The notes under the pieces: model-generated
What the model saw: only the letters and a program-made list of their open reading frames with translations
Databases searched by the model: none
What the model was told of the DNA's origin: nothing
Source: Takakia lepidozioides
Lineage: Eukaryota > Plantae > Bryophyta
Length of the DNA: 64,000 bases
Assembly: GCA_030704615.1 (NCBI GenBank)
Contig: CM060731.1
Location: forward strand, 12,896,001-12,960,000
Direction of reading: 5' to 3'
Position numbers and translations under genes: made by a program
Part shown: positions 4,363 to 52,167 of the stretch, piece after piece
How the letters are laid out: every line of letters begins with the position of its first letter
How positions within the stretch are numbered: the stretch's first letter is position 1

Positions 4363-4999
4363 CGCGCCAACAATACCTCTACCCCCAATCCCTGCAATAT
4401 ATCAACAAAACACTATCCCCAAGTACCCACTGGCCAATTCACATTACACTGACGGATCCCTCACCAAACCTAACGCAGGGTATGGAATCTATCACGCCGG
4501 CACCAGTGAAGGCATTGCCCTCAGGCTCCCTGGCCTTGCCACCATCCTCCGGGCTGAACTCATGGCCATTTATAACGCCCTCTCTCTACTCGACACCTCC
4601 CCCCCCCCCCACACTACATCTTCACCGACAGCCTTACCTCACTATTCCTCATTCGCAACCACATCTCCCCCTCTACCCATCATCATCACCATGACCGCAA
4701 CCTCATTGCCGAGGGGCTTCTTCATCCACACTTGCCATGTACTCCGTGCAATAGAACATAGCTTCTTGCAACGTATACCCCTCCGCCATGCTACCCTCCG
4801 GGTGCGCCATTTGTCTTGTTCCAAGCTTTGTTGGTTTTGATCTAGGACAATGTGGTGGGTGTATGGGTGTGGGAGAGGATGGTTGGATAATGGATGGTGG
4901 CCTTTATTTTATGAGTGATGGTGAGCAATTGTTCGAGCTGAGAAAAGAAAGATGGCGGTATGGCTGTATGCCGGGGGTTTTGGATGTGTAGAATCAGGG

Positions 5000-5830
5000 T
5001 TAGGGTGGGTTCCTTCCATTTGAGATATTTGGGAAGAGGAGGGGTGTGAATATACTTAAGCTGGTTTGGGTCAATTGTGGCGAGTAGATTGACCCCTTCT
5101 GGGAGTTGTAGAAGAGGGTGAGAGATATTAGGAGTGTTTTGTTGTGTGAGGATGAGGATTGTGGATGCAGCTTACCTTCACATATAGAATTAATTTGGGT
5201 TTTCCAGATATCCTCTACAAATACCTTCACACAAGCATCAATTTGTTGTGTGCGAGTTGCCCAAAAACTAGGCCTCAGAAGGACCTGGGCTTTTGGCTCA
5301 GCCTCGACTTTTTCAAAGTTAGTAAATAGAGGTACATGCACAATTCCCTTGATAGATTTGAAGAGAGCATCTCTTTGGTGAGAGAACCCCGAACAGTGTA
5401 TCAGGAAATGAGTATTGTCTTCAGATTGCCCACACAACGGGCAATTGCACTCTCCCTTTCCTCTCTGCTTCTGTTTGCTGTTCAAAGGTAGGCTTCCCGC
5501 CCTGAGTTTAAATTCAGTCTAGTGCCGAGAGTGGGTAGACCCTTGAGGTCATCCAAGTTGTCCTCCCCCATGTCACTGACTGGAAACAAGTTCAGGGAAG
5601 TTTTCTGCCTAACTTCATTTTCATCAGACAATCTCATGGCAACAAACATGGTTGGACACTACAGCCTCTAAGTCAGATTTATCCAGCAAGATGAAGACTT
5701 GCGGTTCCAGGTCCAGGTCCTTGAGAATCTCTTCTACTGTCTTCTACCAGGACTTAGTCTGTTTGACAGGTCGGTGGGCGGTCATGTTTCCAAGATATAG
5801 AGTCGATTAACTTAGGATATCTTGTGTTGG
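5000..5830 (-). mobile_element. Non-LTR retrotransposon (LINE) ORF2 C-terminal remnant
   Basis: CPLCGQSEDNTHFLIHC is a CCHC zinc motif typical of LINE ORF2 ends; the surrounding frame is degenerate. Confidence 0.7.
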
Positions 5831-7490: not shown

Positions 7491-9565
7491 ACCCTATGTC
7501 GTCTCTCCCGCTGTCAGAAGCACGCGATGTGCTTCTGAGCTCGCGGGGAGAGTGTTATGGCGGACGTGCTTCGGTGGCTGTCCCGTTTGTGGTGTCGTAC
7601 CCATGCTGGACGAGCGCCTGGGGAGGCGCGAAGGCAGCGCCTTATCTCTCTTGCAGCGGGAAACGCCGCTATGAATGCAGTGGCATCTTCCCTCCTCTGG
7701 CTTTTTATGTTTAGCAAGGGCACTTATGATGGGAAGTATCTCTCCCTCTTTTCTAGTGCCTTGCGATTGTGCCTGCTTTGCTGCATTGCTTATGTGCTTT
7801 GTGGAGGCGGCTTGCTGCGGGTGGTGATGGCGCATAACCCTCTTCCCCAATTGCTTAAGGTGCCTTTGGAGTTTAGGGATTCTCATGTTCTTATCTTCTT
7901 CTCTTGCTTTTGAGTCTCTTAGTTGACATCGATGACAAGTGTGAGGGTCTGTGATTCACCTAGGGTTCCACAATCCTCACTAATCTGTTGATTTTGTGGG
8001 GGCTTGTGATGGGACCAGGTGAGGATCCTCACCTACTTTGAAGTTTCTTGAGCATGCAGATTGGGATATGGGCTGAGGAGACCTGTGGGTTTTTGCGCTG
8101 TGAGGTGGTTGCTGCCTGCAGCCCCGATTTCAACCCGACCGCCCCTGGTTTGGCATGCTATAGCCTGTGTTTTTGGCCTTTGTCGTTCTGCCGTCGATGC
8201 GCAGCTCGGCCTGACTGGCCTGTTTCCTGAGGCTTGCATACAAACCATACCCTACCTTTTGAACTTTGACAGCAGGGCCTGTGGATTATTGAGCTAGGTT
8301 GTAAGTTCTTTAGGCCAAAGAGGATCTGGTTTCTGGTGGTATGTTTTTGGCAGTTTTGGGTCTCTATGGTCATGGTGGCCTTGAAGGTTACGACGGCAGC
8401 CTGATAAGACACCGACCTGCTCCTTTTCGGGCCTGTTGGTCATTATCAATTAAAGACATAAAGAGCCCATGACAGGGCACCATCTAGCACTTCCAGTCTT
8501 GTTATAGCATACCAAGTGACGACACCCATTCAGTCATGATAAAACAGGGTGGGAGGGCGGGGTACATTCATAATCAGATTCCTGTCATGTACCCAAGTGA
8601 CCCTCTTGCACAATATAAGTCAGATTGCAGCCTCAGATTATATCATCCATAGTTATCCATAAGATATGCATCAAGCAAGATATCATGGGCATATAAGAAC
8701 TTCTTGCCACATTGCAGATCCAAGATATGTATACACATGTACCTTGAAGTGATCCAAGACAAGCATTATATGCAAGGTAGGTAAGAACAACCTGCCCTAC
8801 AACAAATTCAGGGAATGTACACACAGGCAACTAGAAGGACCAGCCTGCAATTAATTACACTTCGGGCATGCAACCAAGTAGACTTCTTGGGCATGGCAAA
8901 CCATATTGCATCTTCACATTTGGCCAAATGCAAGTACCCCAAGACATGCATCGTGCAAGGCCTTCTGGGTAGGTAAGAACAGCCTGTCATTGTACAAATT
9001 CAAGACCTATGTACACAGGAATCTTGCTGGACCAACCTGCAATTAATCAGACTCCAAACATGCAACCAAGTCACCACTTTGGGCATTACAAGACTGACTG
9101 CGACTTCATTCTACACCATGTACAGTTGCCCCAAGATATGCATCATGTAAGACATTTTGGTATGGAAGAAATGTCTGCCTTGTCACAGCATCCAGATATG
9201 GACACACATCCATTTTTAGTGCCCAAGATCAAGCCCACTTGGCCAAAATGTTCCTCTGGTACTCTTCGTCGTTCAAAGGGGCCAGCATCTCCGCATGGTT
9301 GTTCATATACTTCATATGCTGCTCTTGAAATGTCGTGTGCTCTGGAGGGCAGTCGAGGTACCATCCACAGTCCTTGAAGTGGGCAGGACTCCAGTCCCTC
9401 AAGATACCAGCTGTGTACATGGTGGGATCGTTGGCAGGGTCGGACCACATGTCCAGGTAATCTGGGATTCCACTCAGGTGTTTTCCTTCCATCAACACAT
9501 ATTTAGTGTACCTGCGGAGGCTCAAACAAACACCATCCCCCAAAACAAGATATCAAAAAGCAGCA

Positions 9566-9825
9566 GAAAGTGATGATCGATGGCGATCATCACTTTCACA
9601 TGAGAGAGAATGCAACATAGGTTGGCAAATCCTTATGATTATTTAGACTTCACAACTGGGAAATGTGATGGTCGGCACCGACCATCACTTCATTCATCAT
9701 AAACAAAATACCTATGACAACAGAGGAAGGATTAAGAATGGAAACATGGACATGATCTGCAGTATCCATTTGTTTGACTGGAGAATATGAGAGCAGTGGA
9801 AGTGATGATCAGTATCGACCATCAC
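9566..9825. repeat. Cluster 1 of 24-bp palindromes (3 copies)
   Basis: GAAAGTGATGATCG-ATGG-CGATCATCACTTTC at 9566, GTGATGGTCGG-CA-CCGACCATCAC at 9665, degenerate copy at 9802. Confidence 0.9.
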
Positions 9826-11652
9826 CAAACTGTTGTGTAGCAGAAAAGAAATGTTAAGCTTTTCTCAATGAGACATGACAAAATTTCAAAGAATGTGATG
9901 GATAGGCTTGAGGTACTGCACCTGTACACAACACGCATCATCGCCCACTCCCCTCCAACTTGACTGTCGAAATCGTTTGACCTCAATATGTTGCCATCCT
10001 TGGAAACTCGCGGAAGAAACAGTACCGCCACGTGAGACCTTTCCACTTTCTAATGTACGCCTCCAAGGTCATCTGTGGTGGTGAGACCATCGAAATATTC
10101 CAAGTCCTTCAAATTCTGCTCCAGGACAAGAATGGCGCATTTCTCCAGCTGCAATGGGAACATGTATCAGAATTGCACATGACAAAGCTATAGGATAATT
10201 CATATACAACAGGCGCTTGAATCCACAAATACCTGACTCCAAAATGTGGCCTTGTGAAGCCACTGATAAAAAACAATGTCACTTATTCCCTCGACTTTTG
10301 TGCCAGGCTGGATTGTGCTTTTTGGGAACTGATTCAGATCCTTCACCGTCTGATCCGAGTTCCAAATCTCAAGCTATCTAACTTTTTTCTGGGGGTCGAC
10401 CATAGAGAGAGCCAACCTGTGCAATTTCTCATGTTGCATCTCTGGATGTACATGCTTGTCGTAGTGGGATTTGATTTGGAGAAGGAACTCCTCCCCAAGT
10501 CCGGGATCCACTATTCTCAATTGCTTCAGGAAGGCTGACATCAGCTTCGTCCTCCTTATCTCGTACTCCTTCTTTATGGCTGCTCCAACACCTTTGGCAG
10601 TCCTCAGCTCTTCTGCTGTAGTGCGGTAGTACTCAGATTTCCCCCTCTCGGCGGCCTCTGCCAGTTCTTGCTACATGTAACAATGATTGGATTAGAACAC
10701 ATACGATTGCAAATCCGTATTGAAGAAGATAGGAAGAAGTGGGTTGGGCCATACCGCATACATGTACTCCAGAAATGCATCTCGGGTCAACGAGTACCAG
10801 GTCCCTGCAGCTCTTCCTGTTTCGCACTTCTTGATTACATCAGGATGTAGCACTGTGCGGAACTCATCAAGGTTCATCAAACCAATTCTCTGAATATGGA
10901 ATAGTGTGTGGACCAAGCTCGTAGTAACATGCGATTTCTCTGCCGATCTGCAAACAAGGAATACACATTGCATAGGTAAGAAATATTTAACGATTGGACT
11001 TCAATTGCGCACAACATGCAATTTGAAAGGCAATGGGGTTTTTAGGATGTCCTGTTTGTTCACGTCATGCATAGTTGTCAAAAGTCTCGCGATGTCGTTC
11101 GCAAGATCCAGAACCATTGCCACCACAGCACAATGCTTGTCATTGTCTTTTGAATGGTGTTTCACAATGTACCCCATCCAAGCTAGCAGGCGATGGTTCC
11201 CGTCTCAGACATAGAACATGTGGTTGCAGAACTGTTGGGTGTTATGTCCAAGTAGCAGAGAGTCCTCGAACTCGTCATTCACATCCTTCCAGCAATCATC
11301 CCAGTTGTCCGTAATCTTTGGGCTCACTTTTGTGTTGTGACCATTTGTATCCTTCAGTGAGACGTAAAAAACTTGTGCACCCATTCTAGACGTCCTCCAG
11401 AGACGATCATGTCCCTAATAACCTCCTGGGAATTTACCTTTTGATATGACATAAGTTCTTTCACCTTGTCAAGGTAGTGCAATTCAGGCTCGTCTGTGTC
11501 TTCGCTGTTCTCAGAACTCTTCGTGGAGTCGTCCCCTTCTCCAGAGCCCTTTGCATCTGTTTCTGCCTGCTTAGACTTTACATTTTTCTGCATACCCAAA
11601 ACCCACAAGAACAACATTCAACTGGTGTTTTGGAAACAGACATTTTAAAACA

Positions 11653-12431
11653 GTGACGATCAGTACCGACCATCACTTTGTCTTCTAACAAATGAATGGA
11701 AATTCTAGTTGGTTTCCCAATGCACCTTGACTCAGTTCTCACTAGACTGCGATGATCCGTGCCGACCATCAGGATGATGCAAGCGATGATCGGTACCAAA
11801 CATCACCACAAGACAACACTGGGATGCACACAACCACGAGGTATGAATGTGATGGTCGGCACCGATCATCACTATTAGTCAGAATCCTTTCTTTCACTCA
11901 CTGAACTTGGTCTCCTCTTTTGGATTCTGGTGCATTGTCAATCCGTTCAAAAAGTGATGATCGGTACCGATCATCACAATCAGACTGGCTTGGGAAGCAC
12001 AACCCATGAGGTCTGAATGTGATGGTCGGCACCGATCATCACTTTCTAGCAAAATTTGGCCTTTCATTATATGAGATTTAGAGGAAAGAAATGGACTTGG
12101 AGGCGATGATCGCCACCGACCATCGCTTCTATGTTACTGCAATTCCAGATCTAAAGTGGGATGGACAGGGAATGGATCAGAAGGGAATGGACCGTAACGA
12201 TCATCGCTACTACGTCAGTGCAAGATGCGTCTGTAGGTCCCTGGCACTCTTGCATCACAATGAAATAGGCATTCTATGCTTAAATAAAGCAATGGCGAAG
12301 GTGATGGTCGGCACCGATCATCACTTTCGCCTTGAAACGTATACTTTCCTGCCTGCCTGCCTTCCTGAATCTGCTGAACTACAACACCAACTACATTCTT
12401 CTGTAAAGCGATGATCGCCACCGATCATTGC
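11653..12431. repeat. Cluster 2 of 24-bp palindromes, consensus GYGATGRTCGGYACCGAYCATCRC (10 copies)
   Basis: Copies at about 11653, 11749, 11783, 11849, 11954, 12019, 12103, 12184 (degenerate), 12301 and 12408. Confidence 0.9.
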
Positions 12432-13369
12432 TTTTCTCACATCTGGGGACCATCAGTAAGGAGGGAGAAGTGCATTTGAGACAACTTACGGATCCCTTCG
12501 CCTTCTTCGGCTTCGTGGCTGCATCGCTCGGATCGCCCTCTTCAGCTTTCCTCTTCCCTTTTTCATCGGTTTGAACACAACATAAACCACGTTATTGAAT
12601 TCAGCTTGGAAGGGAGAACACCAAGACTAATGAAAACAGTACTATGCGGATATGGAGTGCTGACCATTTCTGTCTGATGTAGGGTTTGCAGACTTCCTCC
12701 CTGTATGGCGTCCATTGCTCCTCCCCCTGTTCTCTTGTCTTCGGGCATGAACTCGGCTGGCACTGTCTGGTTACCTACGCTCACTGCTCCAGCCATCGCT
12801 ACGACTGCGACAACCTCACTCTCACTTCCTACATGCTCTTCTGGTTGACCTATCTCCAAGTTCAAATGCTGCCTAAGCGCTGCAGGGATGCTATTCTGTG
12901 AGCAGATCCCGCGAGCAGAAAAATCTGTGAGCAGACATCTGCTCACGCTTCAGGATCTGCCCACCTATAACCGCGGGCACCTACTCGACTTAGAAGACCT
13001 ATTACTGTGCATAGTGGCCAGTATTACAAGCTCGGTTATGGATGCTGCTGGGATGAATGAGGGATAAATGGCGGATGAATGAGACATGGATGAATGAAAT
13101 AAATGAAATAATACAAAGTTGTTTTGTAGTAGTAGCTCCCAAATCCCCCGAGCTTCGAAATCCCTTAAACCATGCTAGTCTTGCTTGCAAATCAATTGTG
13201 AAAGTGCACTGTATATTGCCAACAATGAATCCACATTGCTTTGTGCATTGAGGAGGGGTTACTTGTCATTTTTCCAGGTATCCAAGGTTGAGAGAAATGC
13301 TCACACCCAAATCTAAATAAAGCAGAGAGGTGAACTCGTGCTTTATAAATAAACATTTCAAAACACGTA

Positions 13370-13965
13370 CTGGGAATTAAGATGTCATTGACGACACCTT
13401 AATCCTCAGCACCTGCACACGCACCGCCTTACCGCCAAGGCTTGTTCGCCATCAGATTTTTTTGGGTGAATTTTTTTGGGGTTTTTGATTTTTCCATGAA
13501 TTGTCATATGCCAACTGGTACAGGGAACTAAGATGTCGTTGATGACACCTTAATCCCCAGCACCTGCACAAACACCGCCTTACCGCCAAGGCTTGTTCGC
13601 CATCAGATTTTTGTGGGTTGAAATTTTTTGGGTGAATTGTTTTGGGATTTTTGGTTTTTCCATGAATTGTACTTGGGAATTAAGATGTCATTGACGACAC
13701 CTTAATCCCCAGCACTTGCACACACACCGCCTTACCGCCAAGGCTGTTCGCCATCAGATTTTCTTGGGTTGAAATTTTTTGGGTGATTTTTTTTGGGGTT
13801 TTTGGTTTTTCCATGAATTGTCATGTACTAACTCGTACTGGGAATTAAGATGTCGTTGACGACACCTTAATCTGGCACATTCGGGGATTTGTTTTTTTTT
13901 TTTTTTTTTTTGAAAACTTGCTGGGAATTAAGATGGCGTTGACGACACCTTAATCTGGCACATTG
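13370..13965. repeat. Tandem ~150-165 bp repeat, each unit carrying a hairpin ATTAAGATGTCGT-TG-ACGACACCTTAAT (5 hairpin copies)
   Basis: Hairpins near 13376, 13527, 13679, 13844 and 13927. The first units share the downstream CACCGCCTTACCGCCAAGGC sequence. Confidence 0.9.
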
Positions 13966-14974: not shown

Positions 14975-15511
14975 TCATATTCCTTTAGACTCCCCCGCTT
15001 CCGAAATATCTCGCGGTTGTCCTTGCGAGTCCCCCAACATTGACCCCTCGCCATCAGATGGCCTTCCTGTCTTCCAGGGACGTCGGGTTCTCCTTCTTGC
15101 ATAGGCCTTTGCCATGTCAACCCACCAATCGACAAGCACAAACAATTCCTCCCAACTAGGGACCGGGCGCCCGACGGTTGTCTTCTTCACAACTGTATCC
15201 ATTAGTTGCCTCAAATTCCAAGTGCCATCCAGTGCCCGACCCTGCACCCAGCGATCAAACTTGCACTTCATCCTGTCCTCCCTCCACTCATTACCCGCTA
15301 AAGCCTCCCTCATTCTCCCCTCCAGCTTGCGTTTGAAATTGAGAAAACCATCAAGCCCATACTGCACATACATGCTTCGCAAGCTCAACATGTCATTGTC
15401 GATGAAATAATCTCGAACCACTTCATTCACGATATTTAATGCCTCTTTTCCAAGATAGTCAGCTTTGTTGGCAAGGGCGGAATTCTTGCGCGTGAGCCTG
15501 GCTAGGCTCAC
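14975..15511 (-). CDS. Uninterrupted 178-aa ORF of unknown function, possibly TE-derived
   Basis: Open frame with protein-like composition and no recognisable motif; start codon is GTG. Confidence 0.3.
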   Translation of the reverse strand: MSLARLTRKNSALANKADYLGKEALNIVNEVVRDYFIDNDMLSLRSMYVQYGLDGFLNFKRKLEGRMREALAGNEWREDRMKCKFDRWVQGRALDGTWNLRQLMDTVVKKTTVGRPVPSWEELFVLVDWWVDMAKAYARRRTRRPWKTGRPSDGEGSMLGDSQGQPRDISEAGESKGI

Positions 15512-15601
15512 GCCATGTCAGCAATCATCCACGTGTGCAGGTCCTAATTCCGTGCCCCCCCCCCCCCCCTATTACCGCGGATCGGTTGTCGCCTATGTCC
15601 C

Positions 15602-16299
15602 TGTTGTGCGCATACATATCGCTACACAACTACATCGATGTCCAAAACCACACAACACATGTGCACACCACACACTAGTATACAACTAGTCCACCACTAG
15701 TCCAACCACTAGTCCAACCACTAGGCTACAACTAGTCAGTCACTAGGCTGCCACTATGCTGCCCACTATGGCAGTCACTAGTCCACACAATGATAAAGAA
15801 GAAGAATACAAGCACGAGCTCACAAATCTGAAGCATAAACTCATGCATATATAACCTCATCACTCAAATACAAGTCAAGCCAAGTGCACCCCACGCCATG
15901 GGGAATCCACACTACGGCGCCATAGCTAGGCGCGGTGAGGCTCAACTCGAGAAAGATGAGCCTCCCGCGCTTGCCGTGAAGATAACCACTCCAGGGCCTA
16001 AATCTGCCTTGACCCCTGGATTGACACTTGGGCCAATCCCAAATGTCAATATGTAAAAGCTAGCTATTTCCTGGCTAGTTTCACACTAGTGGTAAAATAA
16101 CTTGACAGCTATCGTGCGCATACATATCGCTACACAACTACATCGCTGTCCAAAACCACACAACACATGTGCACACCACACACTAGTATACAACTAGTCC
16201 ACCACTAGTCCAACCACTAGTCCAACCACTAGGCTACAACTAGTCAGTCACTAGGCTGCCACTATGCTACCCACTATGGCAATCACTAGTCCACACAAT
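15602..16299 (-). repeat. 3' terminal repeat region: two 190-bp direct repeats (15602-15791, 16110-16299) around a unique segment; candidate LTR 15602-16107
   Basis: The copies differ at about 5 positions, and 15602-16107 runs TGT...ACA. Confidence 0.75.
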
Positions 16300-16557: not shown

Positions 16558-18063
16558 CTATCCCAAGCAGTGTGGACACAACCAATCTCCATCAGGAACC
16601 TTCTCAAGAGGTGGTGTCAAGCATCCCATATGCCAACCCCTTGAGCATCTGTCACACACCAGCATGGTGGCTGCCCTTTTGGCAGACCCACAGAGCATGC
16701 ACCTCAAACCTGCAGGTACCACTGCCAAGTTTGGGTCAACTCTGCCATCAACATTGGGAAGGTGACATGGCGCACAATTACGCACATGGTCCTTCCAAGT
16801 CATGCCATCCCGACCCTTTAAGATCAGGACCCCTGAGGGCAACACCTCTCGAACCCTCAGAATAACACGCCCTGCAGTAACATCTAGAGTCGTAGGAGCA
16901 GTCTGCTGCAAATTAACATAGTCACCAGGGCTAAACCTCCAAACCCCAGGACGATATCCTCCACCACGTATAGTGGCATACCTCAACGTATCACAGTGCT
17001 GTGCAATGGCAAGGTTCTCAAAAGCCATGGGCATGACTTTCTTGAACAACTCTGCACGCTGATCACATGCACGTACCCACACGTCCGGATCGTCAAGGTT
17101 AAGGACTTGAGCAGTGTTCCTACGAATGGTTGCAAGCAAATCCGGCTCTCGGCCAAAGAGAAGGAAATATGGTGAGAAAGAGGCAAGTGATGCTTGTTTG
17201 CTGAACCTGTAGCCCATGGCTAACCAAAGAACCTGAAGATCCCAATCTCCTAGGTGTCCCTTCTGCAAGCCATACTTGCGCAAACCCCTCTTCACCGTCT
17301 GAACAACTCTCTCTGCTAAGCAATCGGCCTCAGGACGATCCCGAGAAGTGGTGTGGTGGTCTATCAAGGCTTTATCACACAAAGCCTGAAACTCCCCCAA
17401 GAACTCTCTCCCTTGGTCCGTGAGTACCTCAGCTGGAGCATCAAATCGGCTAAGCACACGATCCAAGAATGCATACGGAGCCTCCTTACTAGCCTTGTCA
17501 AGCAATGGAACCAACTCAATCCACTTGGAGAAGTGCTCCACCATCACCAATACATATCTGTGGTGGCGCATAGTCAGTGGCAACGGTCCTGCGAAGTCAA
17601 GACTCCACCTGTAGCTTAATCCCATGATTGGTAAATGATGCAATTGTGGTGTAGGGGTGTTGAATGAAGCACGCACCCTGTCACACACCATGCACCTAGC
17701 CACGAACTATTGCACCTCTGTATGCATACCACGCCACCAATACTGCCCTTGCAGTAAACTGTGAGTGCGTCTCACTCCAAAATGCCCCAACTCCTCATGG
17801 GCATGCCGCACTAACCGTGCACGCTGTGTGGGGTGAGGCACAATCCTCACCCGACCATCCTCCCACACTCGAAGTAGGTGTATCCCCTCCCACTTGAACC
17901 TCTTGGCTCGTTGCAGGATCCGATCCCTCTCCTTGGCAGTCACAGTGGCTGCCCTGTCTCCCGTGCAGAGGTAGTCCAACACAGCCGAATCCTCATGTAT
18001 ATCTCTGGCACCACTTGGCTCATCACTAGCCTCAGGGTCCTTAGACACTCCGTCTACAGTCAT
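16558..18063 (-). pseudogene. Gypsy integrase with C-terminal PHD finger (one internal TAG at 17707)
   Basis: HAHEELGH...CMVC, SLDFAGPLP, LTDQGREF, AERVVQTVK, and C-terminal CMLC..CDRC..WHMGC..WLCPHC (C4HC3). Confidence 0.93.
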
Positions 18064-18081: not shown

Positions 18082-19743
18082 CTAACCTCTCGATGCCAAA
18101 ATACACAAAAATGCAGATGCGTGCCATCCCGGCACCATCTCCGCGTCCGTCTCACCATGCCACCGAGCTCCAGTGTCATCCTGATGGCTCATGCATGGAT
18201 TGCGACTCAATCCATCCGCATCCCGATTGACCAAACCTGGTCGATGCACAACCTGAAACTCATACTCCTGGAGTATGAGTGCCCACCGTGCAAGCTTCCC
18301 CGTAAGCTTGTCTGACTCCATCAACCACTTGAGTGGCTGGTGATCCGTGACAAGGGTGAAAAGATTGCCGTATAGATAGCACCTGAAGTGTGCCACGGCC
18401 CATACTGCAGCTAAGCACTCTCCCTCATATGAGCTGTACTTAGCCTCTGCAGCGTTGTTCGAGCGGCTAGCATAAGCCACTACGAATTCTCTTCCCTCAT
18501 CATCCACCTGTGTGAGCACCGCTCCAAGCCCCAGCATGCTCCAATCCGTATGCAGCTGAAAGGGACGCCCCCTGATAGGTCGTCTCAGGATAGGCGCCGA
18601 GGTCAACCTCGCCTTGAGCTCTTGAAAAGCTCGTTCCTGCTCATCTTCCCACTGCCACTCCTGGTCCAACTTGGTCAGCTTGGTTAGAGCCTTTGCAATG
18701 GTACTAAATCCCTTGACAAACCGTCTATAATAGTTTGCCAACCCCATGAAATCTCGAACTCGGCTCACATCCGTGGGGCGTGGAATTTGTGCAATGGCAT
18801 CTACCTTAGTTTGCTATACCCCCAATCCTCCAGGATATATCATGTGACCCAGATACTCAATCTGGTTGTGGAAAAACTTGCACTTCCCCGGATGCAACTT
18901 CAATCCGTGCGCTCTCAAGCGCTCCAATACCACCTGAAGGTGTCTCTCATGCTCCTCCATCGTAACACTAAAGATGATGATGTCATCTATGTAGCACCGA
19001 GCAAAGTCCACCCCTGCTAGAATCCTATCCATGACTCTCTGAAACTCTGCAGGAGCATTCTTAAGCCCAAATGGTAAGAACCGCCACTAATATAGGCAAT
19101 CCTTGCCGTGCTCATTGATCCCCCAGAATGCCATCTTCTGCTTGTCCGCCTCCTTGATTGGCAACTGGTGATATCCGGATCGTAAATCCAAAGTGCTAAA
19201 GGCCTTAGCATGCCCGATAGCATCAAAGATCTCCTCTGGTGTTGGCATGGTATACTTATCGGACCTGGTCTGACGATTTACAGGCCGGTAATCACCGCAC
19301 ATACGTCTCTCCGTCCAATTGCCATAGACATCTTTCTTGGCTGGCATCACTGTGGCTGAAGCATACTCTCCACCAGAGAGCTCCACCAAACCTGCTTCCC
19401 AGAGATCTTGAGTCCTCATCTGAATCAAAGTCCTCTCCATGTCACTGTATCTATAGGGTCTCCGAAAGATTGGCGTGTCAGTGGCCAACTCAATACGGAT
19501 CTCTTGACCTTTCAGTGCTCCCAAGTCCTTCAAACTGAAGGCAAAGCAATTCCTGTAAGCCCTCAGGAACCGCTGTATACGTCGTCTCTCTCCTACGGTG
19601 ACAATGGGTCCAATGTCAGGCTCCCAATTGTCCTCCGTAACTGCAACCTTAAGTCTAGTGGGCTTAGAGGTAGAGGACGCGTCTTGTGGTTGCTTTGTTG
19701 CAACCTCTTGAGCAGTACTCCCTGCCTGCTCAGTCAATGACAA
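18082..19743 (-). pseudogene. Gypsy reverse transcriptase and RNase H (in-frame TAG stops at 19087 and 18814)
   Basis: RMCGDYRPVN, LDLRSGYHQ, LPFGLKNAPAEFQ, CYIDDIII, FMGLANYYRRFV, LHTDWS, YSSYEGECLA, LVTDHQPL. Confidence 0.95.
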
Positions 19744-19752
19744 GGCCTCATC

Positions 19753-21558
19753 CTACCCCATCATCTCATCCTTGAGGATCTCCTCAATCCAAGAAGAATC
19801 CCCAACCTCATCCATCACAGCCGCCTTGGCTGCCAACTCCCTCTGAACCTCGAGCACCTCCCACGTGTGCCATTGATGCATGCACCACGTGGTCCTCATA
19901 TGCTCGCCCCCACTCACTGCCTGTACCGTCTCGGTAGGCAGAGAGACCATCGAGGGAATTGTACTCCGCACTCTGCGTTGCTCAGCCAGAGCCAAGCTGA
20001 TAATCCAGGTCAAGCAATTGAGATCCATTGCTTGCCCCAACACTTGACGACGGGATGCCTCAGAAAGAGACGACACCGTCGTGGTACTAGTGGTAAAATC
20101 CATTGCCCGCTCACGCTTGTCAGCATTAGGCTCCATTAACTGCTGCAACTGAGCATCCCACAGGAGGCCAGGTCCACTATCCCGGAAAGCATGCGATCCT
20201 GGGAAGCTGAGCTGTGTAGGTAATGCTGCTCGTGGTTGACCCACCTTGTTGACCACTGCCAAAGGCGAACGGTCATCGTGTCTCACACGCTGAGACTGCC
20301 TTCCTGTGTCCAGAATGCTATCCACTGTGAGATGTGCTGGCCGCTGCACCCCATCAAATGCACGCTTGAGAAGTGCGGGTGACATCAAGTTAGTCCACCA
20401 TAGCCGTGGACGATGAGTCCGTGACCCCACTGTAGCTGCATCTAGCAACACTGCTGACCCAAGCCATGACCGGACTTGATGCACACTGGCCATCACCCTG
20501 GCCCGAGAATCGCCCATTAGTGGCACATTCTCTAAGATGTATGCTGGAGATACAGCTTGATGAAGCTGCAAGTGGCACAAAACCCGCACCATCTCCCAAA
20601 ACAGACCCGACCTCAAGTCTCGCAATCCATTGCCATGCCCGGCTGAAGAATACCCTTGGCAGGGCCAACCTGCCACTACCAGATCAATGGAGCCAACCCG
20701 CTCCAAATCCTGCGCCCCCAGCAACGAAATGTCTACTGACAAGGTCTGCTGATATCCACGAATTGCAGACACCGACAACAACTCAGGGTACCGCTGCACC
20801 AACTGAGCAACATGACGAAGTGAAACGCGTCGTACAGTCTCATCCCTCTCCACATACAAGTAACGCCGAACTCGTACACCTGCCTGTAACACAACAGCCA
20901 ATCCGGTACTGATCCCGCCAAACAAGTCCAGAAGACAAATGCCTTCATCCGGATACTGCCACACAATAGGTGTGGTATCCAATGGAGACAACTGAGGTGG
21001 TCCTGGTGCAATCCCCGCACTCTCCTCCTCTCCTGATGGTACAAAAGCCTCCACCCAGACTTGTTGCACCCTTCGATCAGCAACCCGCTGCAAATCCTTG
21101 CTCGTGCCCCACAATGGAGTCTGAGCAACCATGACAGACAACTCCGCCATACTATACATGTCGTCATGCTCTCCCGGAGATGGCACATCCTCTGAATGAG
21201 CGTTGCCCTCAAGCAACTCTCCAGGCCAACTCACTGCCGCTGTGAATGCTGCTAGTGTCGGTATCTTGCCTCGCTGGGCAACCGCAATTCCTCCTATGAA
21301 TGTCAGAGGGAGCTGCACACGCCGGCCCTCCCCTGACTGCCATCCTGGCCTATAAGAAGCTGACTCCTCCCAAAAATCCAGGGTGAAGCCCATGGGGTAC
21401 AATACTGCCCCACCAACCAGGACATCGTATGAGACCACGTCTGTCACAATGGCCTTGGCTCGCATCACTGAGCCATCTGTAGGGTGATCCGGCCGTAGTT
21501 TGATAGCCAACTCATGCCATGTCATGCCCCGAGCCTGCTCCGATCCTCCCAGAGACAT
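19753..21558 (-). CDS. 601-aa pol segment containing a DNMT3-like DNA (cytosine-5) methyltransferase domain (~20000-20940)
   Basis: Motif I LDLFGGI, II YLYVERD, IV AGWPCQG, VI ILENVP, VIII HRPRLWWTN and X RRQVLGQAM, in non-permuted order. Confidence 0.92.
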   Translation of the reverse strand: MSLGGSEQARGMTWHELAIKLRPDHPTDGSVMRAKAIVTDVVSYDVLVGGAVLYPMGFTLDFWEESASYRPGWQSGEGRRVQLPLTFIGGIAVAQRGKIPTLAAFTAAVSWPGELLEGNAHSEDVPSPGEHDDMYSMAELSVMVAQTPLWGTSKDLQRVADRRVQQVWVEAFVPSGEEESAGIAPGPPQLSPLDTTPIVWQYPDEGICLLDLFGGISTGLAVVLQAGVRVRRYLYVERDETVRRVSLRHVAQLVQRYPELLSVSAIRGYQQTLSVDISLLGAQDLERVGSIDLVVAGWPCQGYSSAGHGNGLRDLRSGLFWEMVRVLCHLQLHQAVSPAYILENVPLMGDSRARVMASVHQVRSWLGSAVLLDAATVGSRTHRPRLWWTNLMSPALLKRAFDGVQRPAHLTVDSILDTGRQSQRVRHDDRSPLAVVNKVGQPRAALPTQLSFPGSHAFRDSGPGLLWDAQLQQLMEPNADKRERAMDFTTSTTTVSSLSEASRRQVLGQAMDLNCLTWIISLALAEQRRVRSTIPSMVSLPTETVQAVSGGEHMRTTWCMHQWHTWEVLEVQRELAAKAAVMDEVGDSSWIEEILKDEMMG

Positions 21559-21564
21559 CTGTAT

Positions 21565-21675
21565 CTAGAAAGGACAAGGCTCCATATCCGCCTTCGTGAG
21601 GCCCAAGCCTGCAATAGCAGCTCTGCCCAACATCAATGGTTGAGCTCCCGAGTCCAACAAGACCCGCAGTGGCCG
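21565..21675 (-). pseudogene. Retroviral-type aspartic protease active-site region
   Basis: The frame upstream of the 601-aa ORF reads PLRVLLDSGAQPLMLGRAAIAGLGLTKADMEPCPF*IQM. Confidence 0.85.
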
Positions 21676-22029: not shown

Positions 22030-24194
22030 CTGCCGTAGTCTGGCAACATTAGGTAGTGGTGCTACCCGTGTAGCTCTCCCCAATGGCATAGTAACCTCCG
22101 CCTCGGTAACAGTCGGGCGAGAACTAGGTGCCATGGATGGTGTCGACATTGTCTCCGCCAATGTGAATGACTAAGGAAGCCTAGCCTGACGACTTGCCTC
22201 CCCACGCTGTGGATCCAACTCCACCTCTGCTCCTCGTGGCTCAGGAACTCGTGCTGCTCCTCGAGTCACGGCTGCAGCAGACTCCACCTGCACTAGTGGT
22301 ATTGCTGCTCCGCACATGAATCCTATGCCTCCCATATCTCCTCCTTCAGGAGCAGGAGGTGGACCATTCGGCCTTGGAGCCGGTACCACCTGAGCTGTAG
22401 CCATGGCAGCGAGCCTCTGCTATAGTTGCTGAAGCCGGTTGGCCATGCCTTGGTCAACACCCTGACCTCCGCGTCCTTGGCAATGTTGAGCTTGCCCTTG
22501 GCCTGCACCTCGTGCCTGGCCACCTCGTCCTCTCTGGGCTGCTCCACCTCGCCCCCGGCCACCATTGTTCCCTTGGAACTGGCCTGGGCGCAACTCAGGA
22601 TGCAAACCATAACACTGGGCCTCTCCATGCCCGTGCTTGCCACAATGCCCACACTGCAACTGTGCATGTGCCGGCCCTCTGCCTTCCTCTGGGCAATCCT
22701 TCTTGACATGGGATCCTCCACATGTCCAGCACACCACATCCGCTCGTTGTTGGCCAACAAATGAAGGGAGAGACCCCTGCATTTGAAGGGAGAGACCCCT
22801 GCATCTGAGGTCCTCTCTACCCTTCCCTGAGCTTCACCTGAGCCCCCTTGTTGCCTTGAGCACGTTGAGGTAGTGGTTGGCTAGGAGCACCACTACCCCG
22901 TGGTGTCTCCTTAGCAAATCCCAGCATGACCACTCGTTCCTCCACCATGTTGAGCTCTATCCGCTCTGCCAGCAAAAACACATTTGCTAAGGTGGGTTGG
23001 GCCGCTCGTATGAGAGTTACATCCCGCACCCTTCTCCTCAGCTCCTTATCCAATATCCTATACTAGAATTGGACTGCCTGAGCTTTCGTAACCCCTTGGG
23101 TTACATTTATCAAGCGCCTCATGCGAGTGAAAACCTCCCTCAAGCTCTCAGTAGGCTTCCGTTGGAACTCTTGCAAGCTCTGCAACTTCTCTGTCTTCAC
23201 CCCTCGGTAGTTCTCTCTTAACTCTTTGAAGAACTCCACAACAGGGTTGAAGGCAGGCACCGCCACTGGTGCTGGTGCAGTAGTAGCTTGGGTGGACTCG
23301 TAGCTACGGTATCACCAGTCCCACTAGTCCCACTGCTGCTTGCTGAAGTTGCCGGTGTAGTGGCAGGTGTAGCCACTGCCCTCGTGGCTCTAGTGCCCCT
23401 CATATGGCAGATGTTCATCCTATTGTATAGAATATTTGTTTAGATTCATGATGCAGTGGCATTTTGTGGAGATGACCTTATAGTGGATAGGGCACAAGGT
23501 TGCCTTACAAGTGGTTTTGGATTTTGGTCTATGTTTGTTGTCACCTATTATGACCAACTCATCTATAAAAATAGGTGAACTGGCTGTTAATATGTGGGTA
23601 CCTTTAAGGACTAATTTCAAGTTATTGGGGTAGGTTCGGGTTACAACCATAGAAGGTGTTCACGGTGAAAGACAGTAGCCATTTCGGGTGAAATGACGTC
23701 ATAAATTTTGTTTGTTTTTGCAATACGTTTATTTCTTAGTCGGGTGACCAGTACATCCTCCACTCCTCGATCTCAACCTCATGCCCCCGCCTGAACTCAT
23801 GGTAATCATCCACAGGCGGCCCCTCAAGGTGCTGAAACAGCCCCTTCCATGCCATGAAAGGCGTAAATAGTTGTGGATTGCGCATTTGCTGCAAATCACA
23901 CCAACTATCAAACTCTTGGATAAAATCATCCAACTCGATGGTGTCCACCGCCCAAGAGTACCTTCGTGGCCCCTTGGTAGCTCCATACATCTCATCCATT
24001 GTGTCCCACAACAATGGCAAGGAAACAACTTGCACCGCCGGTATGAGTCCTCCTGATTCACAATCCAAATCAGAACCTTCCGTAGAAGACACAGGAGGTG
24101 AAGGTGGTCTAAACCGCACACCTCGTCTCGTGTACCCACTAGTATCGCTAGTGCTCGAACCGGCACTGTCCCCAACAACTAGTGGCACCTCCGT
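22030..24194 (-). pseudogene. Gypsy gag, interrupted by stops, a 22-bp duplication and an insertion
   Basis: LQEFQRKPTESLREVFTRMRRLI capsid-like region, zinc knuckles CWTCGGSHVKKDC and CGHCGKHGHGEAQC, and an RGG-rich linker. Confidence 0.8.
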
Positions 24195-24929
24195 GTTGAC
24201 AAACTGTCACTCAACCGGTCATGAACATGTCCCTAACCCCCTTTCCACAAGGTAACCGGGTAGAAAACCTGTTGCGGCTTATGGTTTGGAATACTAGGTT
24301 CCTAACATAGCCTAAACCTATACCTGCATCCACCGCAAACACTTCTATGGTTGGCTGGTCATCACCTCCAACCTCACCATAAGAGAAACAATGATGGTCT
24401 GACTGGTCATCATCCTAGCCTCACCATCGACAACATGCTCTAGGACTGGCCGGTGATCAAATCCGGACCAATCACCTATAAAAACAAGCGCCCACACAAA
24501 ACTAACATGGCGCACAGTCAAGCATGCAGGTATGGAGGGGATCCAAACACAAGAAATCAGAACGACAACTCCCCCATACCAAAAACAACTCCACGGTGTT
24601 GCTCCTGCAAGGACACCCCAGCCCAAACCCGGACTTAATCTTGCCTCCACCTACGGAAAGGTCTTGGCCTAATGAGAGGGTGGAAACTACGAGGAAGAGA
24701 AGCTAAAGCAATGCCTAACCCCAGCATGCCCTCATCCGAACACTCTTCCTCCCCTCTCTTCCCTCACTTGCATGACCATAGGAATATCACGAAGATACTC
24801 CTCAAACCGCCCTCCACGAGTTTCAAAATTCGGCCTTCAAGACCACATACCAGTCTTTAGGCAGTCCACCAATGCCTCCACGAGTCAGCACAGGCCGTCC
24901 ACAGGTCAACACGGGCCATCACAAACCAG

Positions 24930-25490
24930 CACACAGATCACTGGTCACAGCCGTCACAGCCCCGCACAGGCCACAGCCTAACACAGCCCTACACAGGTCA
25001 CATGATCACAGCCCCATAGGCCGTAGCCTGTCACAGCCCCCACGGCCACAGGTCACAGCCTGCTACAGCCTATCACAACCCCAAAGGCCACAGGCACAGC
25101 CTGTCACAGCCCTACAAAGGTCACAGCCCCAAATGCCACAGCCTATCACAGCCCCTCACAGCCCCATAGGCCACAGGGCACATCCTCTCACAGCCCCTCA
25201 CAGCCCCACAGGCCACAGGGCACAGCCCGCCACAGCCCGTCACAGCCTGTCACAGCCCCACAGCCCACATGGCACAGCCTGTCACAGCCCTACACAGGTC
25301 ACAGGGGTCACAGCCTCAAAGGCCACAGCCTGTCACAGCCCGTCACAGCCCTACAAGCCACAGGGCACAGCCTGTCACAGCCCCTCACAGCCCCACAGGC
25401 CACTGGGCACAGCCCGCCACAGCCTGTCACAGCCCCTCACAGCCCATCACAGCCCGTCACAGCCCGTCACAGCCCGTCACAGCCCCACTC
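24930..25490. repeat. CACAGCC-based minisatellite (~10-bp unit)
   Basis: Dozens of GTCACAGCCC/CACAGCCT variants in tandem. Confidence 0.9.
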
Positions 25491-25984
25491 ATGACAGTTT
25501 AGCCATTTCTCCAAGAGGTTTAGCCATGCCAAGCTAGGGTTTGTGTCTCTTGGACTCTAGGCTTCTTTGCACTGAGCTATGGCGACTGTGAAGAAATCAG
25601 AAAGGTATTCTTGCTCTTTCGGCTCCCACACACCACCAATAAGTAGTCCTAAGCCACGAGGAAGATGGTTGCTACAAACCAAGTCTTCTTTCTCACTTAG
25701 ACTCCCCAAACACGCCACTAAACTCAATAGCAAACAACCAAGCCTTGCTGGTTTCCAATCCTTGTGAGCACTCATTCATGCGTTTTCCTTGGCCATAACA
25801 TCTGTCTTAGAGCCTATTCCAGCCCCCTACACCTGCCACTTCAAGACCCATGCTCTATCTAGGCTTGAGGTTGAAACCCCACCTCACATATGCCCTACAA
25901 GTGCTTTTCTTTCACCCAAGTGGGAACCAGCCCTAGCCCTTCCATTCTAGCTCTCTAAAGCTTAAACAAAAGCCCAATGGACTG

Positions 25985-26310
25985 AAGAGATGCTCCACAC
26001 ATGCCCCACTCTCACCACAAGAGAATCAGCCCCTTTGCTTCATTTCTTGCACCCACCAACCTGAAAATACATGCTTCAGCGGGCTGGAAGCATGCTCCAC
26101 ACATGCCCTACAGGGAAACCAACCCCTTCATTTCTGTCTTGCACTCCCAAACCTGAAAGTACAAGCCTTCAACAGGCTGAAAGCATGCTCCACACATGCA
26201 TTGCTCTCACATAAGGGAAGTCAGCCCTTCCCTCTTCCTTGCTTGCCCTCCAACTTGAAGATGAAAGCTTCAATGAGCTGAATACATGCTCCACACATGC
26301 AACCTCTTCA
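25985..26310. repeat. About 4 degenerate ~100-bp tandem units containing ATGCTCCACACATGC
   Basis: Motif at ~25990, 26091, 26184 and 26286. Confidence 0.75.
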
Positions 26311-26923
26311 CACAAGAGATATCAGGCCCCTATCTTGGCTCCTTGGGGTATTCGAAGTGTGGTGCAACATGAGAAACTGAAGGGTTCTTACTTTGGACTA
26401 ATTCAAAGAAGTTCACACTTCTTTTTATTTTTAATATTTAATTTGATATAATATGGTTGTGTGAAAGATCAGAAATTTGTGTCTGGTAAAATGCATTTTT
26501 CTCAAAGTTGTCTATCATAGTGAAAGTCGAAAAACAAAAAATTAACCAATACTCTCAATATAATTTGATGAGGATGTCCAACTCCAAAACTAGAATTTCG
26601 GAAGATAATTTTGAACAAATATGGAGACATCTCTCATTCTACAGGCTACTAATCATGACTACATGTACACCTTATGACAATGTTGTTGAGCTTTGCATGC
26701 TCTTAACCTTATGGCCTCTAAAAACAAGCAAAATAAGCAAAATTGGGTGTTTGCGCATAACCAAGATGATCTTAGGCTCAGTGCTTCAACAGTCAATTAG
26801 CTCTTCCAGCAGTGCATAGGGCTCTCTAAATTATTTCAACGTTGATCTAACTGTAATTAACTTTTTTTATCTTATAGTTACTTTTATTGGATATTACTGA
26901 CTATTGTCAAGGAAAAATGACTC

Positions 26924-29900
26924 TTATTTACGCTGCCTTCGGCTAGTCTTATCTCTCCTCTGACTGTTTGCAGCTCTCCCATGCAGATTTCTATGACTGC
27001 TATGGTCTGTACAGGCCTCCCTCACCAAAATGTCAGACTTGCTTGCTGGTGGCAGCATGCCTCCAAAACATTTTGAACTGGGCGGTAGCCCACTTAAATC
27101 ACATTGGAAAACACCTGTGGCCACAAAACAACATCTTGTGAAAGGATCCTTCATGTTTAATTGATTCTCATCAGTTCTTATCAAAAGAAGCATTACAGCT
27201 TTTCGAACTGAGTACTCTCTCAACAGCCCTGCTACTGGCTGACCCTCCCTAAATTGCTATTTGGCCCATGATGATTTGAGGGTTGAGAAACTATGTGAAA
27301 TTACCTGCACCGTAAACACCTGGCCTTCGCTTTGCGTTGGTTGTCCCTGGTGTGAGGCGAGTCCTGTTGGAGCACAAGCATCTTGTTTAAAGTTTCTTGC
27401 TCCCGAATAGAAATTGTGTTCTTCATGGTTTGCGTGGCATGTGGATCCTTGGCAAGCACATTCATCACCTGCAATGAGATCAACTTTGCAATTATTTACC
27501 TTAAATCATTGTTCTGACCTATCACACCGTTCAGAGACTATTGTGGGAGTGCTGCAGGCTCGAAGTTTGGAAAGACGGGTTGACACCCATTTCACCACCC
27601 CTAATCTCTTGATCGTCTGTCAGATGACCATAGGATGGAAGTGCACTTCAGGTACTGGCCACTTGTGATCTGAATCCCAGCTGGCTGCAAGGAAGGACTG
27701 TAAGGCCAAACACAAGTTAAACTACAAGTGCCAAGGGGAATATTCAGGATGATTGAGCATGGGTGTTGTGTGTGAGAGAAGAAAATGAGGGACAATATTA
27801 CGTCCATGGGAGGCCCAGCCCCATGGGCAACAGTGAGATGACTCCTGTGCTATTGCATGGACGGGTTGCTAGAACTGGGAGAACCTGTTCTTTGTTGACC
27901 ACCAAGGTGACAACATGGGTCTTAGCTCGAATGGATGCATTTCGGCGAGGCACCTCACCCCATCTTGTATGTAAGAACAGAGCCATCTCTCCTGCAACAT
28001 TTAATGCAGTTAAAAAATGACACACCAATGGAAAGAAGAAAACCCTGAGCTCAAATGTAGGTATGACTGTGTTAAGGTACATAAATCACTTTGGTGAAAA
28101 AGCAATCACCCATATCAGCTTCATTTTATTCCTGATGCACATGTAATGTGTAATCCTTGAATTTTACTGAAGATCAATTCCTCATGTAAATTTTGATACC
28201 AATCTGTGGATAAGCAGCATAGCACAACTGTCATGCCCACTTCCTAGAGGAAAGCTCCATAAACCATGTGAAAGGCAAGCGTGTGAAGGGTACACTGAAG
28301 GAAGTTCAGTATGATCTTACCTACAAACTGGCCTGGCCCTCTTTCAGCAATTGCATACTCCACTTTCTCTCCACTCAGTTCCGCGATCGTGCTGGACTCT
28401 ACCAGCACCTCACATTTTCCACTGTTAATGAAAAACATCTCGTGGCCTTCCTCTCCCTGCTAGTCCTACAAGCCCAGACTTGGTATGAGGCAGTTGACCA
28501 TGACTAAAATTGGTGAGCTTCCAGAGCTGTTGTAAGGAAATAATCATTGTAGAGATGTAGACAGAGAGAGAATGTTGTGCTCATTAGACATTTCACAAGA
28601 TCCATAGGAGACCAGAGAGTCTATGAGACTGAGGAAAGTAGAACTACAAGAGAAAGAAAGAAAGAAAAATCCTTTATATTTGGTGCAACCGAGCCTCTAG
28701 AACAATGATTTTTCTTCCTCATACAAAGCAAAAATTCTGAGGGAGGCTCAAAGGACCCAAGGAAGTAGAAGAACAAGAAAGCACAGAGAGAGAGAGAGAG
28801 AAGAAAGAAAGAAAGAACTTTATAATGTCCATAGTCCATAGACCCCCAAAGTGCTTATGGGACGAGCGTGTGGAACAAGAAGAGACATTTGGCCTGACGG
28901 TGCAATATAAGTAATAGAAACACACTTGAATAAAGAGGGAGATTGGGTGTGAGTGCTGGAGTTTTGTAGTTTGCAACTCGACTGTGCAAGCTTAGATTGG
29001 TGGGAATTGAACTGTCTCCTAGCTGCTTCAAATGCTCTGTATGAAGGTGGATTAAGGACAAAAGCACAGCAAAAGTAACCTGCCGGATGATGTAGTCACC
29101 CCTCTCGTAGTGGCGTTCCTCCACACCCACATTGAACAGCATCTCTAAGCCCAAGCTGTTGCTGGTATAAGCTGCATTCACCTCATCATCTGATACTAAC
29201 ATGGGTACACCTGTCATCAAGGGCCCCATTGTGAAGGGAGCAAGTGGCTCCATTCCACCAGATGAAACCCATGCGTGCTGCATGATGGCCGAGAGCGAGA
29301 TCCGCATGTCAGGATCTTTGGTTAAAATTAGCACCTGCAAGCAGCGTCCATTTCCCTCATCCTTGTTTACCACCAAATCTTCGATGCAGCACAACAGAAT
29401 TGCTAATAAAACAGCAAGTAAAAAATGAACAGTGAAATATCTCCTTTTGTTGTAGGTCTCACTCAGTATACAAAGAAAGAAAGAACGTGTTACCAGTAAT
29501 GCCTTAAGCTCCTTGGATACTTTGTGCTCCATTGGGAAAACAAGCTGCAATTCCCTAGATACACATCCACACCAGGTTATTTCCTCCATTCAAAATACCA
29601 AAGCTACTCTGTCTGTCCCTCTCTCCTTCCTCCTCCCCTGCATTATTCCTCTCCCCCTCTGTGGGTAGAGGAGACTAACTGCCTTGGAAAAACAACAATG
29701 TGAAAAACCTACATGCTTCAAAGCTCAGTTGCTTTCATGGACCCTTCGCGAATAACTGAAAATTTGTGAACAGTAATCAGGTACTGTAAATAGAATTTTG
29801 TGCCAGTATGTGGGCTCTTAGAATAAGTGCCCCTTATCAGACTGTCGTTTCTGTACTGAGAAAGCATGAAGGAGAGGTAATGCGTAAAGCTTAAACACCT

Positions 29901-46670: not shown

Positions 46671-46705
46671 GGCTATGGTTTGTAGTGACTTAAAGGCATT
46701 ATTTA

Positions 46706-52000: not shown

Positions 52001-52167
52001 GGAGGTCTTGTCTGAAGGTCTCATGCGCATGCTGGAGATATTCGGTGCTGAAAGGACTGTGAATCTGAGACAGCATCCATGACTAAGAGAAAGAGTTAGC
52101 AGGCGGAGACAACTCTTGTTACAAAGTTGGAAGTTTATACCCAGAGCATTTTGTAGAGAAAATAACC

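Follow-up and report, generated by a model that had tools for sequence, protein, structure and literature searches.

A window of 64,000 nucleotides from the moss Takakia lepidozioides (GenBank assembly GCA_030704615.1, contig CM060731.1, positions 12,896,001 to 12,960,000 of the forward strand; all coordinates below count from its first letter) was found to contain a Ty3/gypsy retrotransposon with a cytosine-C5 DNA methyltransferase (MTase) built into its polyprotein frame. The MTase is a family-wide trait and not a single capture. In the clade that holds the bryophyte elements, a conserved stop codon, which is likely to be leaky, lies between the MTase and the reverse transcriptase (RT). The MTase is therefore the last part of the Gag-protease frame and lies outside Pol proper, so that it would be made at the Gag level. 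Taken together, we think it rather probable that the window holds a decayed copy of a high-copy family whose MTase is made and packaged at the level of Gag and likely methylates the element's own complementary DNA (cDNA). Both the readthrough of the stop and the activity of the enzyme are predictions.

The methyltransferase domain and its reading frame

The open reading frame (ORF) lies on the minus strand at 21564-19756. It runs 603 codons from stop to stop, or 601 counted from the ATG at 21558. Its first ~65 residues are the second half of a protease, and the MTase with motifs I-X follows at 19960-20940. An earlier note on this stretch had listed the C5-MTase motifs in canonical order, and the sequence reads that way: LDLFGG (20931-20914), GWPCQ (20670-20656, with the catalytic Cys at 20661-20659), ENV (20532-20524), HRPRLWWTN (20415-20389) and RRQVLG (20052-20035). 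The circular permutation of the DRM type was not found in this ORF. The Pfam profile check suggested at that time also gave a match, to PF00145 (E = 6.1e-13; 49.3 bits against a cut-off of 22).

The domains from the protease to the PHD finger share this minus-strand frame. The aspartic protease (21370-21660; LLDSGA at 21660-21643) is cut by a TAG at 21567-21565, and the frame changes just upstream of it, near 21681. It is ~45-59% identical to the protease of closer relatives, and the uninterrupted relative L048 gives PF13650, below the cut-off. Beyond the MTase we found an RT with internal TAGs (18814-19620; PF00078; YIDD at 18993-18982), an RNase H (18190-18810; PF17917, E = 1.2e-36), an integrase with the zinc-binding HHCC part and the core (16900-17895; PF17921 and PF00665) and, at the C-terminus of the integrase, a PHD finger followed by the terminal stop (16558-16701; PF00628, E = 1e-10). 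The PHD finger and the 3′ B-A-B repeats described below were absent from the earlier note. The order gag, protease, RT, RNase H, integrase is that of Ty3/gypsy elements. Between 21660 and 16561 the frame has six internal stops, every one of them a TAG (21567, 19755, 19089, 18816, 18084 and 17709), in agreement with the earlier description of a single frame separated by TAG codons.

The domain is DNMT3-like, as had been proposed from its motifs; the comparisons made here support a position closer to DNMT3 than to DRM, DNMT2 or the solved bacterial enzymes. A single-sequence search of the PDB returned DNMT3A at the top (E = 7.7e-10), then DNMT3B, DRM (1e-3) and bacterial enzymes. With a family profile built from eight members, the scores were 80.5 bits for DNMT3A, 72 for DNMT3B, 39-44 for DRM, 35.5 for HhaI and 25 for DNMT2. 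The predicted structure (pTM 0.80, pLDDT 74) has a full MTase fold. Foldseek listed only DNMT3A/B/C for this model, and the best matches were DNMT3A/B (E = 8.5e-15; TM 0.63/0.76). Host DNMT3A and DNMT3B (PDB 6f57, 6brr and 6u8p) are thus the best match in both sequence and fold, with the same order of motifs and similar motifs VIII and IX-X. However, the element domain is ~21% identical to them, has neither PWWP nor ADD, and carries a longer target-recognition region (model residues 230-267). Because this region is of low confidence in the model, the target sequence context is not predictable.

Descent from a host DNMT3 is the favoured but unproven origin, since phage C5 MTases score nearly as high. 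Three of them reached 63-76 bits on the same family profile, over the N-terminal motifs I-VIII only. They belong to Roseobacter phage CRP-9, Proteus phage RS51pmB and podovirus Tbat2_2 (L081-L083), and the one searched against the PDB matched HhaI best.

The window copy is a dead pseudogene of its Ty3/gypsy family, with a frameshift and an insertion in addition to the six internal stops. Three of the six TAGs fall where most relatives hold one conserved residue, so at least three are decay. Upstream, the frame changes near 21681, and gag is interrupted both by stops and by an AT-rich insertion of 336 bases (23401-23736; 37% GC), which is missing from most other host copies (joint 23400-23737; drop in depth). 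Motif IX also deviates, being ADKRERAMDFT in the window copy vs A[DN]ERERAMGF[PL] in relatives. We rejected the open 603-codon ORF as a sign of selective preservation of this copy. When six stops were placed at random in 1700 codons, 49% of 100000 trials produced a gap of at least 603 codons (P = 0.49). A reassignment of TAG to an amino acid, which would explain why all the stops are TAG, was not favoured either: the pol frame itself ends with TAG at 16558, and the host exons match mosses best. Contigs from one run, presumed to be RNA although they may be DNA, aligned to the element at ~90-95% identity and thus speak neither for nor against its expression.

Copies, relatives and selection

The summed contig depth in the host DNA run X1, which is not a copy number, was 0.68-1.14 million over the MTase and 0.92-1.20 million over RT, RNase H and integrase, compared with 350-3700 over the flank. 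A 2173-base contig of another host copy (record 11) runs without a gap from the end of the MTase through RT and RNase H. The earlier note had considered whether the MTase might be a one-off insertion or the product of a chimeric assembly. The even depth, this contig and the recurrence of the same order in relatives speak against both. A single captured gene or an assembly chimera is refuted as the explanation for the position of the MTase, and we give it next to no probability: the order is found in dozens of independent loci and in named genomes, and the main groups agree between the MTase and RT trees. What could be said for a chimera is that the 5′ terminus of the window copy is unlike its internal segment A and shows no target duplication; the locus may join the halves of two copies.

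Protein searches found relatives in other bryophytes. Among 53 matches, 18 were named, of which 12 were from Marchantia polymorpha, three from Calypogeia fissa and three from Sphagnum. Ten of the 26 longer matches were named, nine from Marchantia and one from Sphagnum fallax. No vascular-plant relative was present among the named matches of either search. These relatives support the suggestion that the system extends to embryophytes, and the host side of the window agrees with them. The TBC-domain exon at 52231-52659 is closest to Sphagnum (83-84%), followed by Ceratodon (71%), named flowering plants (57-63%) and Calypogeia (56%).

Relatives were also common in metagenome contigs, where 299 of 385 candidate stretches encode them. 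The best 80 of the 299 were analysed and formed 64 distinct groups. The main group, called here Sphagnum-type, is 95% identical over 110 residues to an S. fallax protein. A second, more distant MTase subfamily (L057-L079; ~38% identity, GWECQ at the catalytic site) occurs in the same metagenome assemblies, and its termini and split repeats are as in the Sphagnum-type family.

A profile search yielded 520 clusters at 50% identity (E up to 1e-30), and the domain order was surveyed in the best 150 of them. RNase H precedes the MTase in 71, 22 have only MTase-integrase, 47 have the MTase alone, and 10 have a protease before the MTase or RT after it. A Scenedesmus relative has the order RT-RH-MTase-INT-PHD (RH, RNase H; INT, integrase), and Closterium relatives have PR-MTase (PR, protease) and MTase-RT-RH-INT. 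The same MTase also stands between RNase H and integrase in the Scenedesmus-type P0150 and L071 (1-14184), the latter with an exact 3.5-kb duplication. The Scenedesmus-type order is a domain shuffle inside one superfamily. In P0071, P0073 and P0075 (RH-MTase-INT-PHD), a long extension after the PHD finger has a DP(F/W)AG motif, read by eye. It looks like a second MTase fold that binds S-adenosylmethionine (SAM), and recalls the dual-methylase elements of a 2026 preprint.

In the MTase tree, which has no outgroup, the window copy fell in a 10-row clade (support 100/99) with Calypogeia, Marchantia and the Sphagnum type. A quick RT-RNase H tree, made with no bootstrap, had the same main groups. 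The ratio of nonsynonymous to synonymous rates (dN/dS), a check proposed in the earlier note, was calculated between relatives. It was 0.13 for the MTase and 0.15 for RT in L048/L049, and 0.16 for the MTase in L003/L009; the second subfamily gave 0.24-0.29. These ratios show purifying selection on the MTase domain of the family. In the pairs that include the window copy (n = 4), synonymous sites were saturated, with pN of 0.19-0.35.

The conserved stop and the proposed role of the enzyme

The MTase had previously been described as part of pol. It is indeed built into the polyprotein frame, but the closest relatives end Gag-protease-MTase at a conserved stop before RT. We compared the linkers of 48 loci in which the MTase end and the RT start lie within 600 bases; three more loci carried insertions. 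When mapped on one reference, 27 of the 29 distinct groups covering the site had a stop 73 codons past the MTase, and only L020 and the window copy were without it. For comparison, there were 330 stops in 30642 cells overall, and the next site had 9/36. The conserved stop is 17-24 codons before the RT start in the relatives. In L048, a protease-MTase ORF of 1369 codons is followed by one TAG and an RT-RH-INT-PHD ORF of 1047 codons, with the frame kept. Similarly, many gene models of Marchantia polymorpha hold an uninterrupted Gag-protease-MTase frame. Among the 15 Marchantia models with a complete MTase, 10 end 70-72 residues past it and one ends at the domain. P0098/P0103 end 74 residues past the MTase.

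The bases after the stop resemble a known readthrough signal. The exact CAR-YYA hexamer follows TAG in L003 (TAG CAA CCA) and in L048 and L049 (TAG CAG TTA), and L038 has two TAGs and then CCA. L003 and L048/L049 represent two further lineages, with linkers unlike those of the Sphagnum type. After ordinary codons in these frames, the hexamer occurs at only 0.2-0.35%. CAR-YYA is described as sufficient on its own to direct stop readthrough in tobacco mosaic virus (PMC2194720). From this context we regard it as probable that ribosomes would yield mostly Gag-protease-MTase, and that readthrough at UAG-CAR-YYA would give a minority of full Gag-Pol.

In the window copy, the TAG closing the ORF (19753-19755) was not favoured as a programmed stop. 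It is 43 codons before the RT start and 20 codons earlier than the family site, and its context (GAT GAG) is not of the readthrough type.

Several observations weigh against a readthrough-dependent, Gag-level enzyme. At the site of the window copy equivalent to the conserved stop (19687-19695), CAA CCA is present at the matching distance of 22-23 codons before the RT start, but it follows a sense codon instead of a stop. The Sphagnum-type context is CAA CCC in 26 of 27 copies, one base off CAR-YYA, and 9 of these 27 stops are TAA, the other 18 being TAG. An ATG two codons past the stop in 26 of the 27 would permit reinitiation. Only 28 of the 48 linkers are in one frame; 20 are off by one or two bases, which we interpreted as decay. 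In 4 of the 15 Marchantia models, the frame continues into RT or RNase H through a linker shortened in a splice-like manner. No notable signal of a stimulatory RNA structure was found past the stop (z -0.6 to -1.7; no pseudoknot). A conserved linker stop was not found in L057-L079 and P0202 (at most 6/17 groups at any site), and MTase and RT/RNase H share one ORF in L061-L064 and P0202. Thus, part of the superfamily does without the stop. With regard to selection, the sister copies L009/L025 had a dN/dS of 0.94, as for dead copies, and the 0.29 at the upper end of the second subfamily came from L064/L068. The DNMT domain of the related element of the alga Klebsormidium nitens produced no methylation in yeast, a result called inconclusive in the cited text (PMC5890265).

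The ATG, the TAA share and the shortened Marchantia linkers would also fit another route, in which the enzyme is kept at the Gag level and RT-integrase is made via splicing, reinitiation or an internal start. Ogre elements are known to splice between protease and RT. In addition, a readthrough-like site of Candida Tca2 is reported to have failed in yeast tests (PMC2194720). However, the frame is kept over the stop in the 28 loci, and the others are one or two bases off the same linker lengths. The exact CAR-YYA occurs in two lineages with unlike linkers, and there is no in-frame ATG within 105 codons past the stop of L048, the first one in L003 being at codon 48. We therefore consider this route unlikely.

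In the reading that we favour, the protease would release the MTase inside the particle, and the MTase would methylate the newly made cDNA there. Such methylation within the particle seems slightly better favoured than not. The best PDB matches of the PHD finger were CHD4, PHF12, KDM5B/5A, ATXR5, DPF3 and PHF21A. Most of these fingers read H3 tails unmethylated at K4. The finger of the element might steer the integrase to non-promoter chromatin lacking H3K4 methylation, for and against which we are evenly divided. A new copy would then arrive pre-marked as heterochromatin, which may limit its own expression or evade host surveillance. The combined scenario, an ancient green-lineage clade in mosses and liverworts with a leaky UAG-CAR-YYA, a capsid-level MTase and cDNA methylated before PHD-guided insertion, is put forward tentatively, and we would not yet bet on it as a whole. 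If it were true, a land-plant transposon would write its own silencing mark, with the writer and the reader split by a recoding signal.

It is also conceivable, although rather doubtful, that the enzyme works mainly on nuclear chromatin (the insertion site, sibling copies or host genes), either freed or together with the integration complex. The integrase carries a PHD finger of the chromatin-reader kind, and enzyme made at the Gag level would far exceed the one cDNA per particle. The Scenedesmus-type MTase, between RNase H and integrase (RNase H is ahead in 71/150), lies beside the integration machinery. On the other hand, membership of the Gag polyprotein predicts packaging, and the packaging of parts of retroelement Gag polyproteins is established. 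The methylome of K. nitens is described as plant-like despite such elements (PMC5890265).

The yeast result would also be expected if the domain were not an active MTase but served to bind DNA, RNA or SAM, or as a decoy. The residue before the catalytic Cys is often Glu instead of Pro in relatives (GWECQ in 65 and GWPCQ in 39 of the 150 representatives). Nevertheless, human DNMT3B was likewise negative in the same yeast assay (PMC5890265). The catalytic Cys motif is present in 135, EN in 129 and RxRxxW in 133 of the 150 representatives, many of which are fragments, and the full fold is predicted. Loss of catalysis thus appears improbable. Production of RT-integrase by splicing or reinitiation and action on nuclear chromatin are compatible with parts of the particle-based reading that we favour.

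Such elements are plentiful in mosses and in liverworts such as Marchantia polymorpha. The question of why a transposon carries its own silencing enzyme can now be asked in a genetically tractable land plant. A testable clue comes from the conserved stop, by which the element would make about as much enzyme as Gag; such a quantity suggests that the enzyme acts in the particle. Gene annotation is affected as well, because these copies raise the number of DNA methyltransferases counted in bryophyte genomes. That no vascular-plant relative appeared among the named matches dates a possible loss.

Ends of the element, its surroundings and known systems

The termini of the relatives start with TGTCATG and end with CACGACA (TGTC...GACA). 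Two full identical long terminal repeats around the coding region were not found. The repeats are split, in the arrangement A-coding-B-A-B in L043, L061 and L064, with B joined to A via two spacer bases. This B-NN-A joint seems to resemble the end-to-start joint of an integrase substrate. Among the five relatives with both ends, a 4-bp target duplication was exact in three and mismatched in one, and one had none.

The 3′ end of the window copy has the same form, B-GC-A-B at 16299-15602. The first B (16110-16299) is 98% identical over 186 bases to the second. The two-base spacer GC (16109-16108) and segment A, which starts with TGTC, follow at 15792-16109 and form a joint as in the relatives. 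The terminal B (15602-15791) ends with ...ACA at the 3′ end of the element, and below ~15550 the depth is at flank level. The probable 5′ end (24950-25496, minus strand like the rest) has TGTCATG at 25496 and then a CACAGCC-type tandem repeat (families D1-D3 and D6) without a match to segment A. Its position is supported by the starting heptamer shared with relatives and by its distance of 1497 bases upstream of the gag core, vs 1433-1493 in five relatives. A search of the whole window for a 5′ A repeat matching the 3′ A found none, and the 3′ end shares no 4-bp target duplication with the 5′ flank. The mismatched ends may stem from a recombinant or a collapsed assembly.

The N-terminal and capsid-like part of gag (23066-24206, minus strand) is broken by stops and the insertion. 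It matches PF03732 below the cut-off (E = 0.0014; 23066-23311), and the gag region resembles the N-termini of Marchantia P0010, P0014 and P0054. The putative nucleocapsid (22423-22833, minus strand) has two zinc-knuckle-like Cys/His clusters and an RGG-rich stretch, with the same layout in P0054; a Pfam scan of this stretch gave no match.

The window also contains other repeats and genes. Just beyond the probable 5′ end, a 61-base repeat occurs four times, ~100 bases apart (25972-26328; D10). At the other end, a 180-codon minus-strand ORF without a Pfam match (14975-15570), with a run of ~14 G adjoining the 3′ end of the element, is probably another repeat because depth is raised there in the host runs. 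A near-palindromic repeat of 34 bases is dispersed in ~11 copies over 9562-12433 (D4; inverted pairs I2-I6), and a repeat with T-rich tracts is present in five copies at ~150-base spacing at 13345-13955 (D5, D8 and D9). A transposase fragment at 3840-4691 (DUF4218, E = 4e-19) is presumably of CACTA type. The fragments at 4337-5518 and 45470-46672 are like decayed LINE ends, with a weak RNase H match at 4337-4837 and no Pfam match in the rest. Intron-containing host genes for a thioredoxin, a ubiquitin-specific protease and a Rab-GAP TBC protein lie at 776-1366, 37884-42855 and 52087-54351. A minus-strand exon at 28855-29589 reads like a kinase tail and the start of a cyclic-nucleotide-binding domain, although the Pfam scan gave no match.

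The closest known system, going by its published description, is KnitGypsy-Dnmt3 of K. nitens (PMC5890265). Neither the named search matches nor the 30 clusters that were looked up by name included a sequence identified as K. nitens. As described, both systems combine Ty3/gypsy domains and a DNMT3-like domain that is intronless, non-permuted, part of the polyprotein and under purifying selection. The DIRS-like split repeats A-coding-B-A-B are also common to both, here seen in the relatives and, for the window copy, at its 3′ end. The algal element has been reported from only one charophyte, whereas here the host is a moss and the relatives are from liverworts and Sphagnum. Its DNMT is said, in the peer-review file of that paper, to be in one ORF with RT and RNase H, which the conserved stop divides in the present clade. 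The term PHD is absent from the main text of that paper, whereas here a PHD finger follows the integrase. Neither Marchantia nor Sphagnum is named in its species table, which gives 33 DNA-methylase genes for Klebsormidium and nine for Physcomitrella.

SymbioDIRS-Dnmt3 of Symbiodinium, which is reported to methylate CG de novo in yeast, similarly has a DNMT3-like domain in a retroelement polyprotein and split repeats (PMC5890265). However, it is a DIRS element with a tyrosine recombinase, whereas the present family has a DDE integrase, TG...CA ends and 4-bp duplications. EpiLTRs of Cymbomonas and Euglena (bioRxiv 10.64898/2026.05.21.726589) are likewise LTR elements with a DNMT and a chromatin-reading domain. 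Their DNMTs are sister to DNMT4, are accompanied by a DAM domain and a chromodomain, and are called distinct from streptophyte Gypsy-DNMT3 in that preprint. PHD fingers are described as common in Chlamydomonas transposons (PMC11982613 and PMC8557442).

As for the stop, murine leukemia virus (MuLV) gag-pol, soybean SIRE1 and tobacco mosaic virus also join two frames over one in-frame stop, and the tobacco mosaic virus UAG has the CAR-YYA hexamer on its 3′ side, as in L003, L048 and L049 (PMC2194720). In the readthrough systems described there, the stop is between gag and pol or between pol and env; here it comes after the protease and an enzyme domain, with readthrough predicted from the sequence.

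One review states that land plants such as tracheophytes lack DNMT transposons (PMC6338049), and two other papers mention such elements only as earlier reported in streptophytes (PMC12344493 and the 2026 preprint cited above). We found no description of such elements or their stop signal in bryophytes, in a literature in which subscription journals were thinly covered; the supplementary trees of the two papers on streptophytes may include bryophyte copies. Compared with these systems, the present elements extend the algal KnitGypsy-Dnmt3 kind into land plants, and the conserved stop with its readthrough-type context is a new feature.

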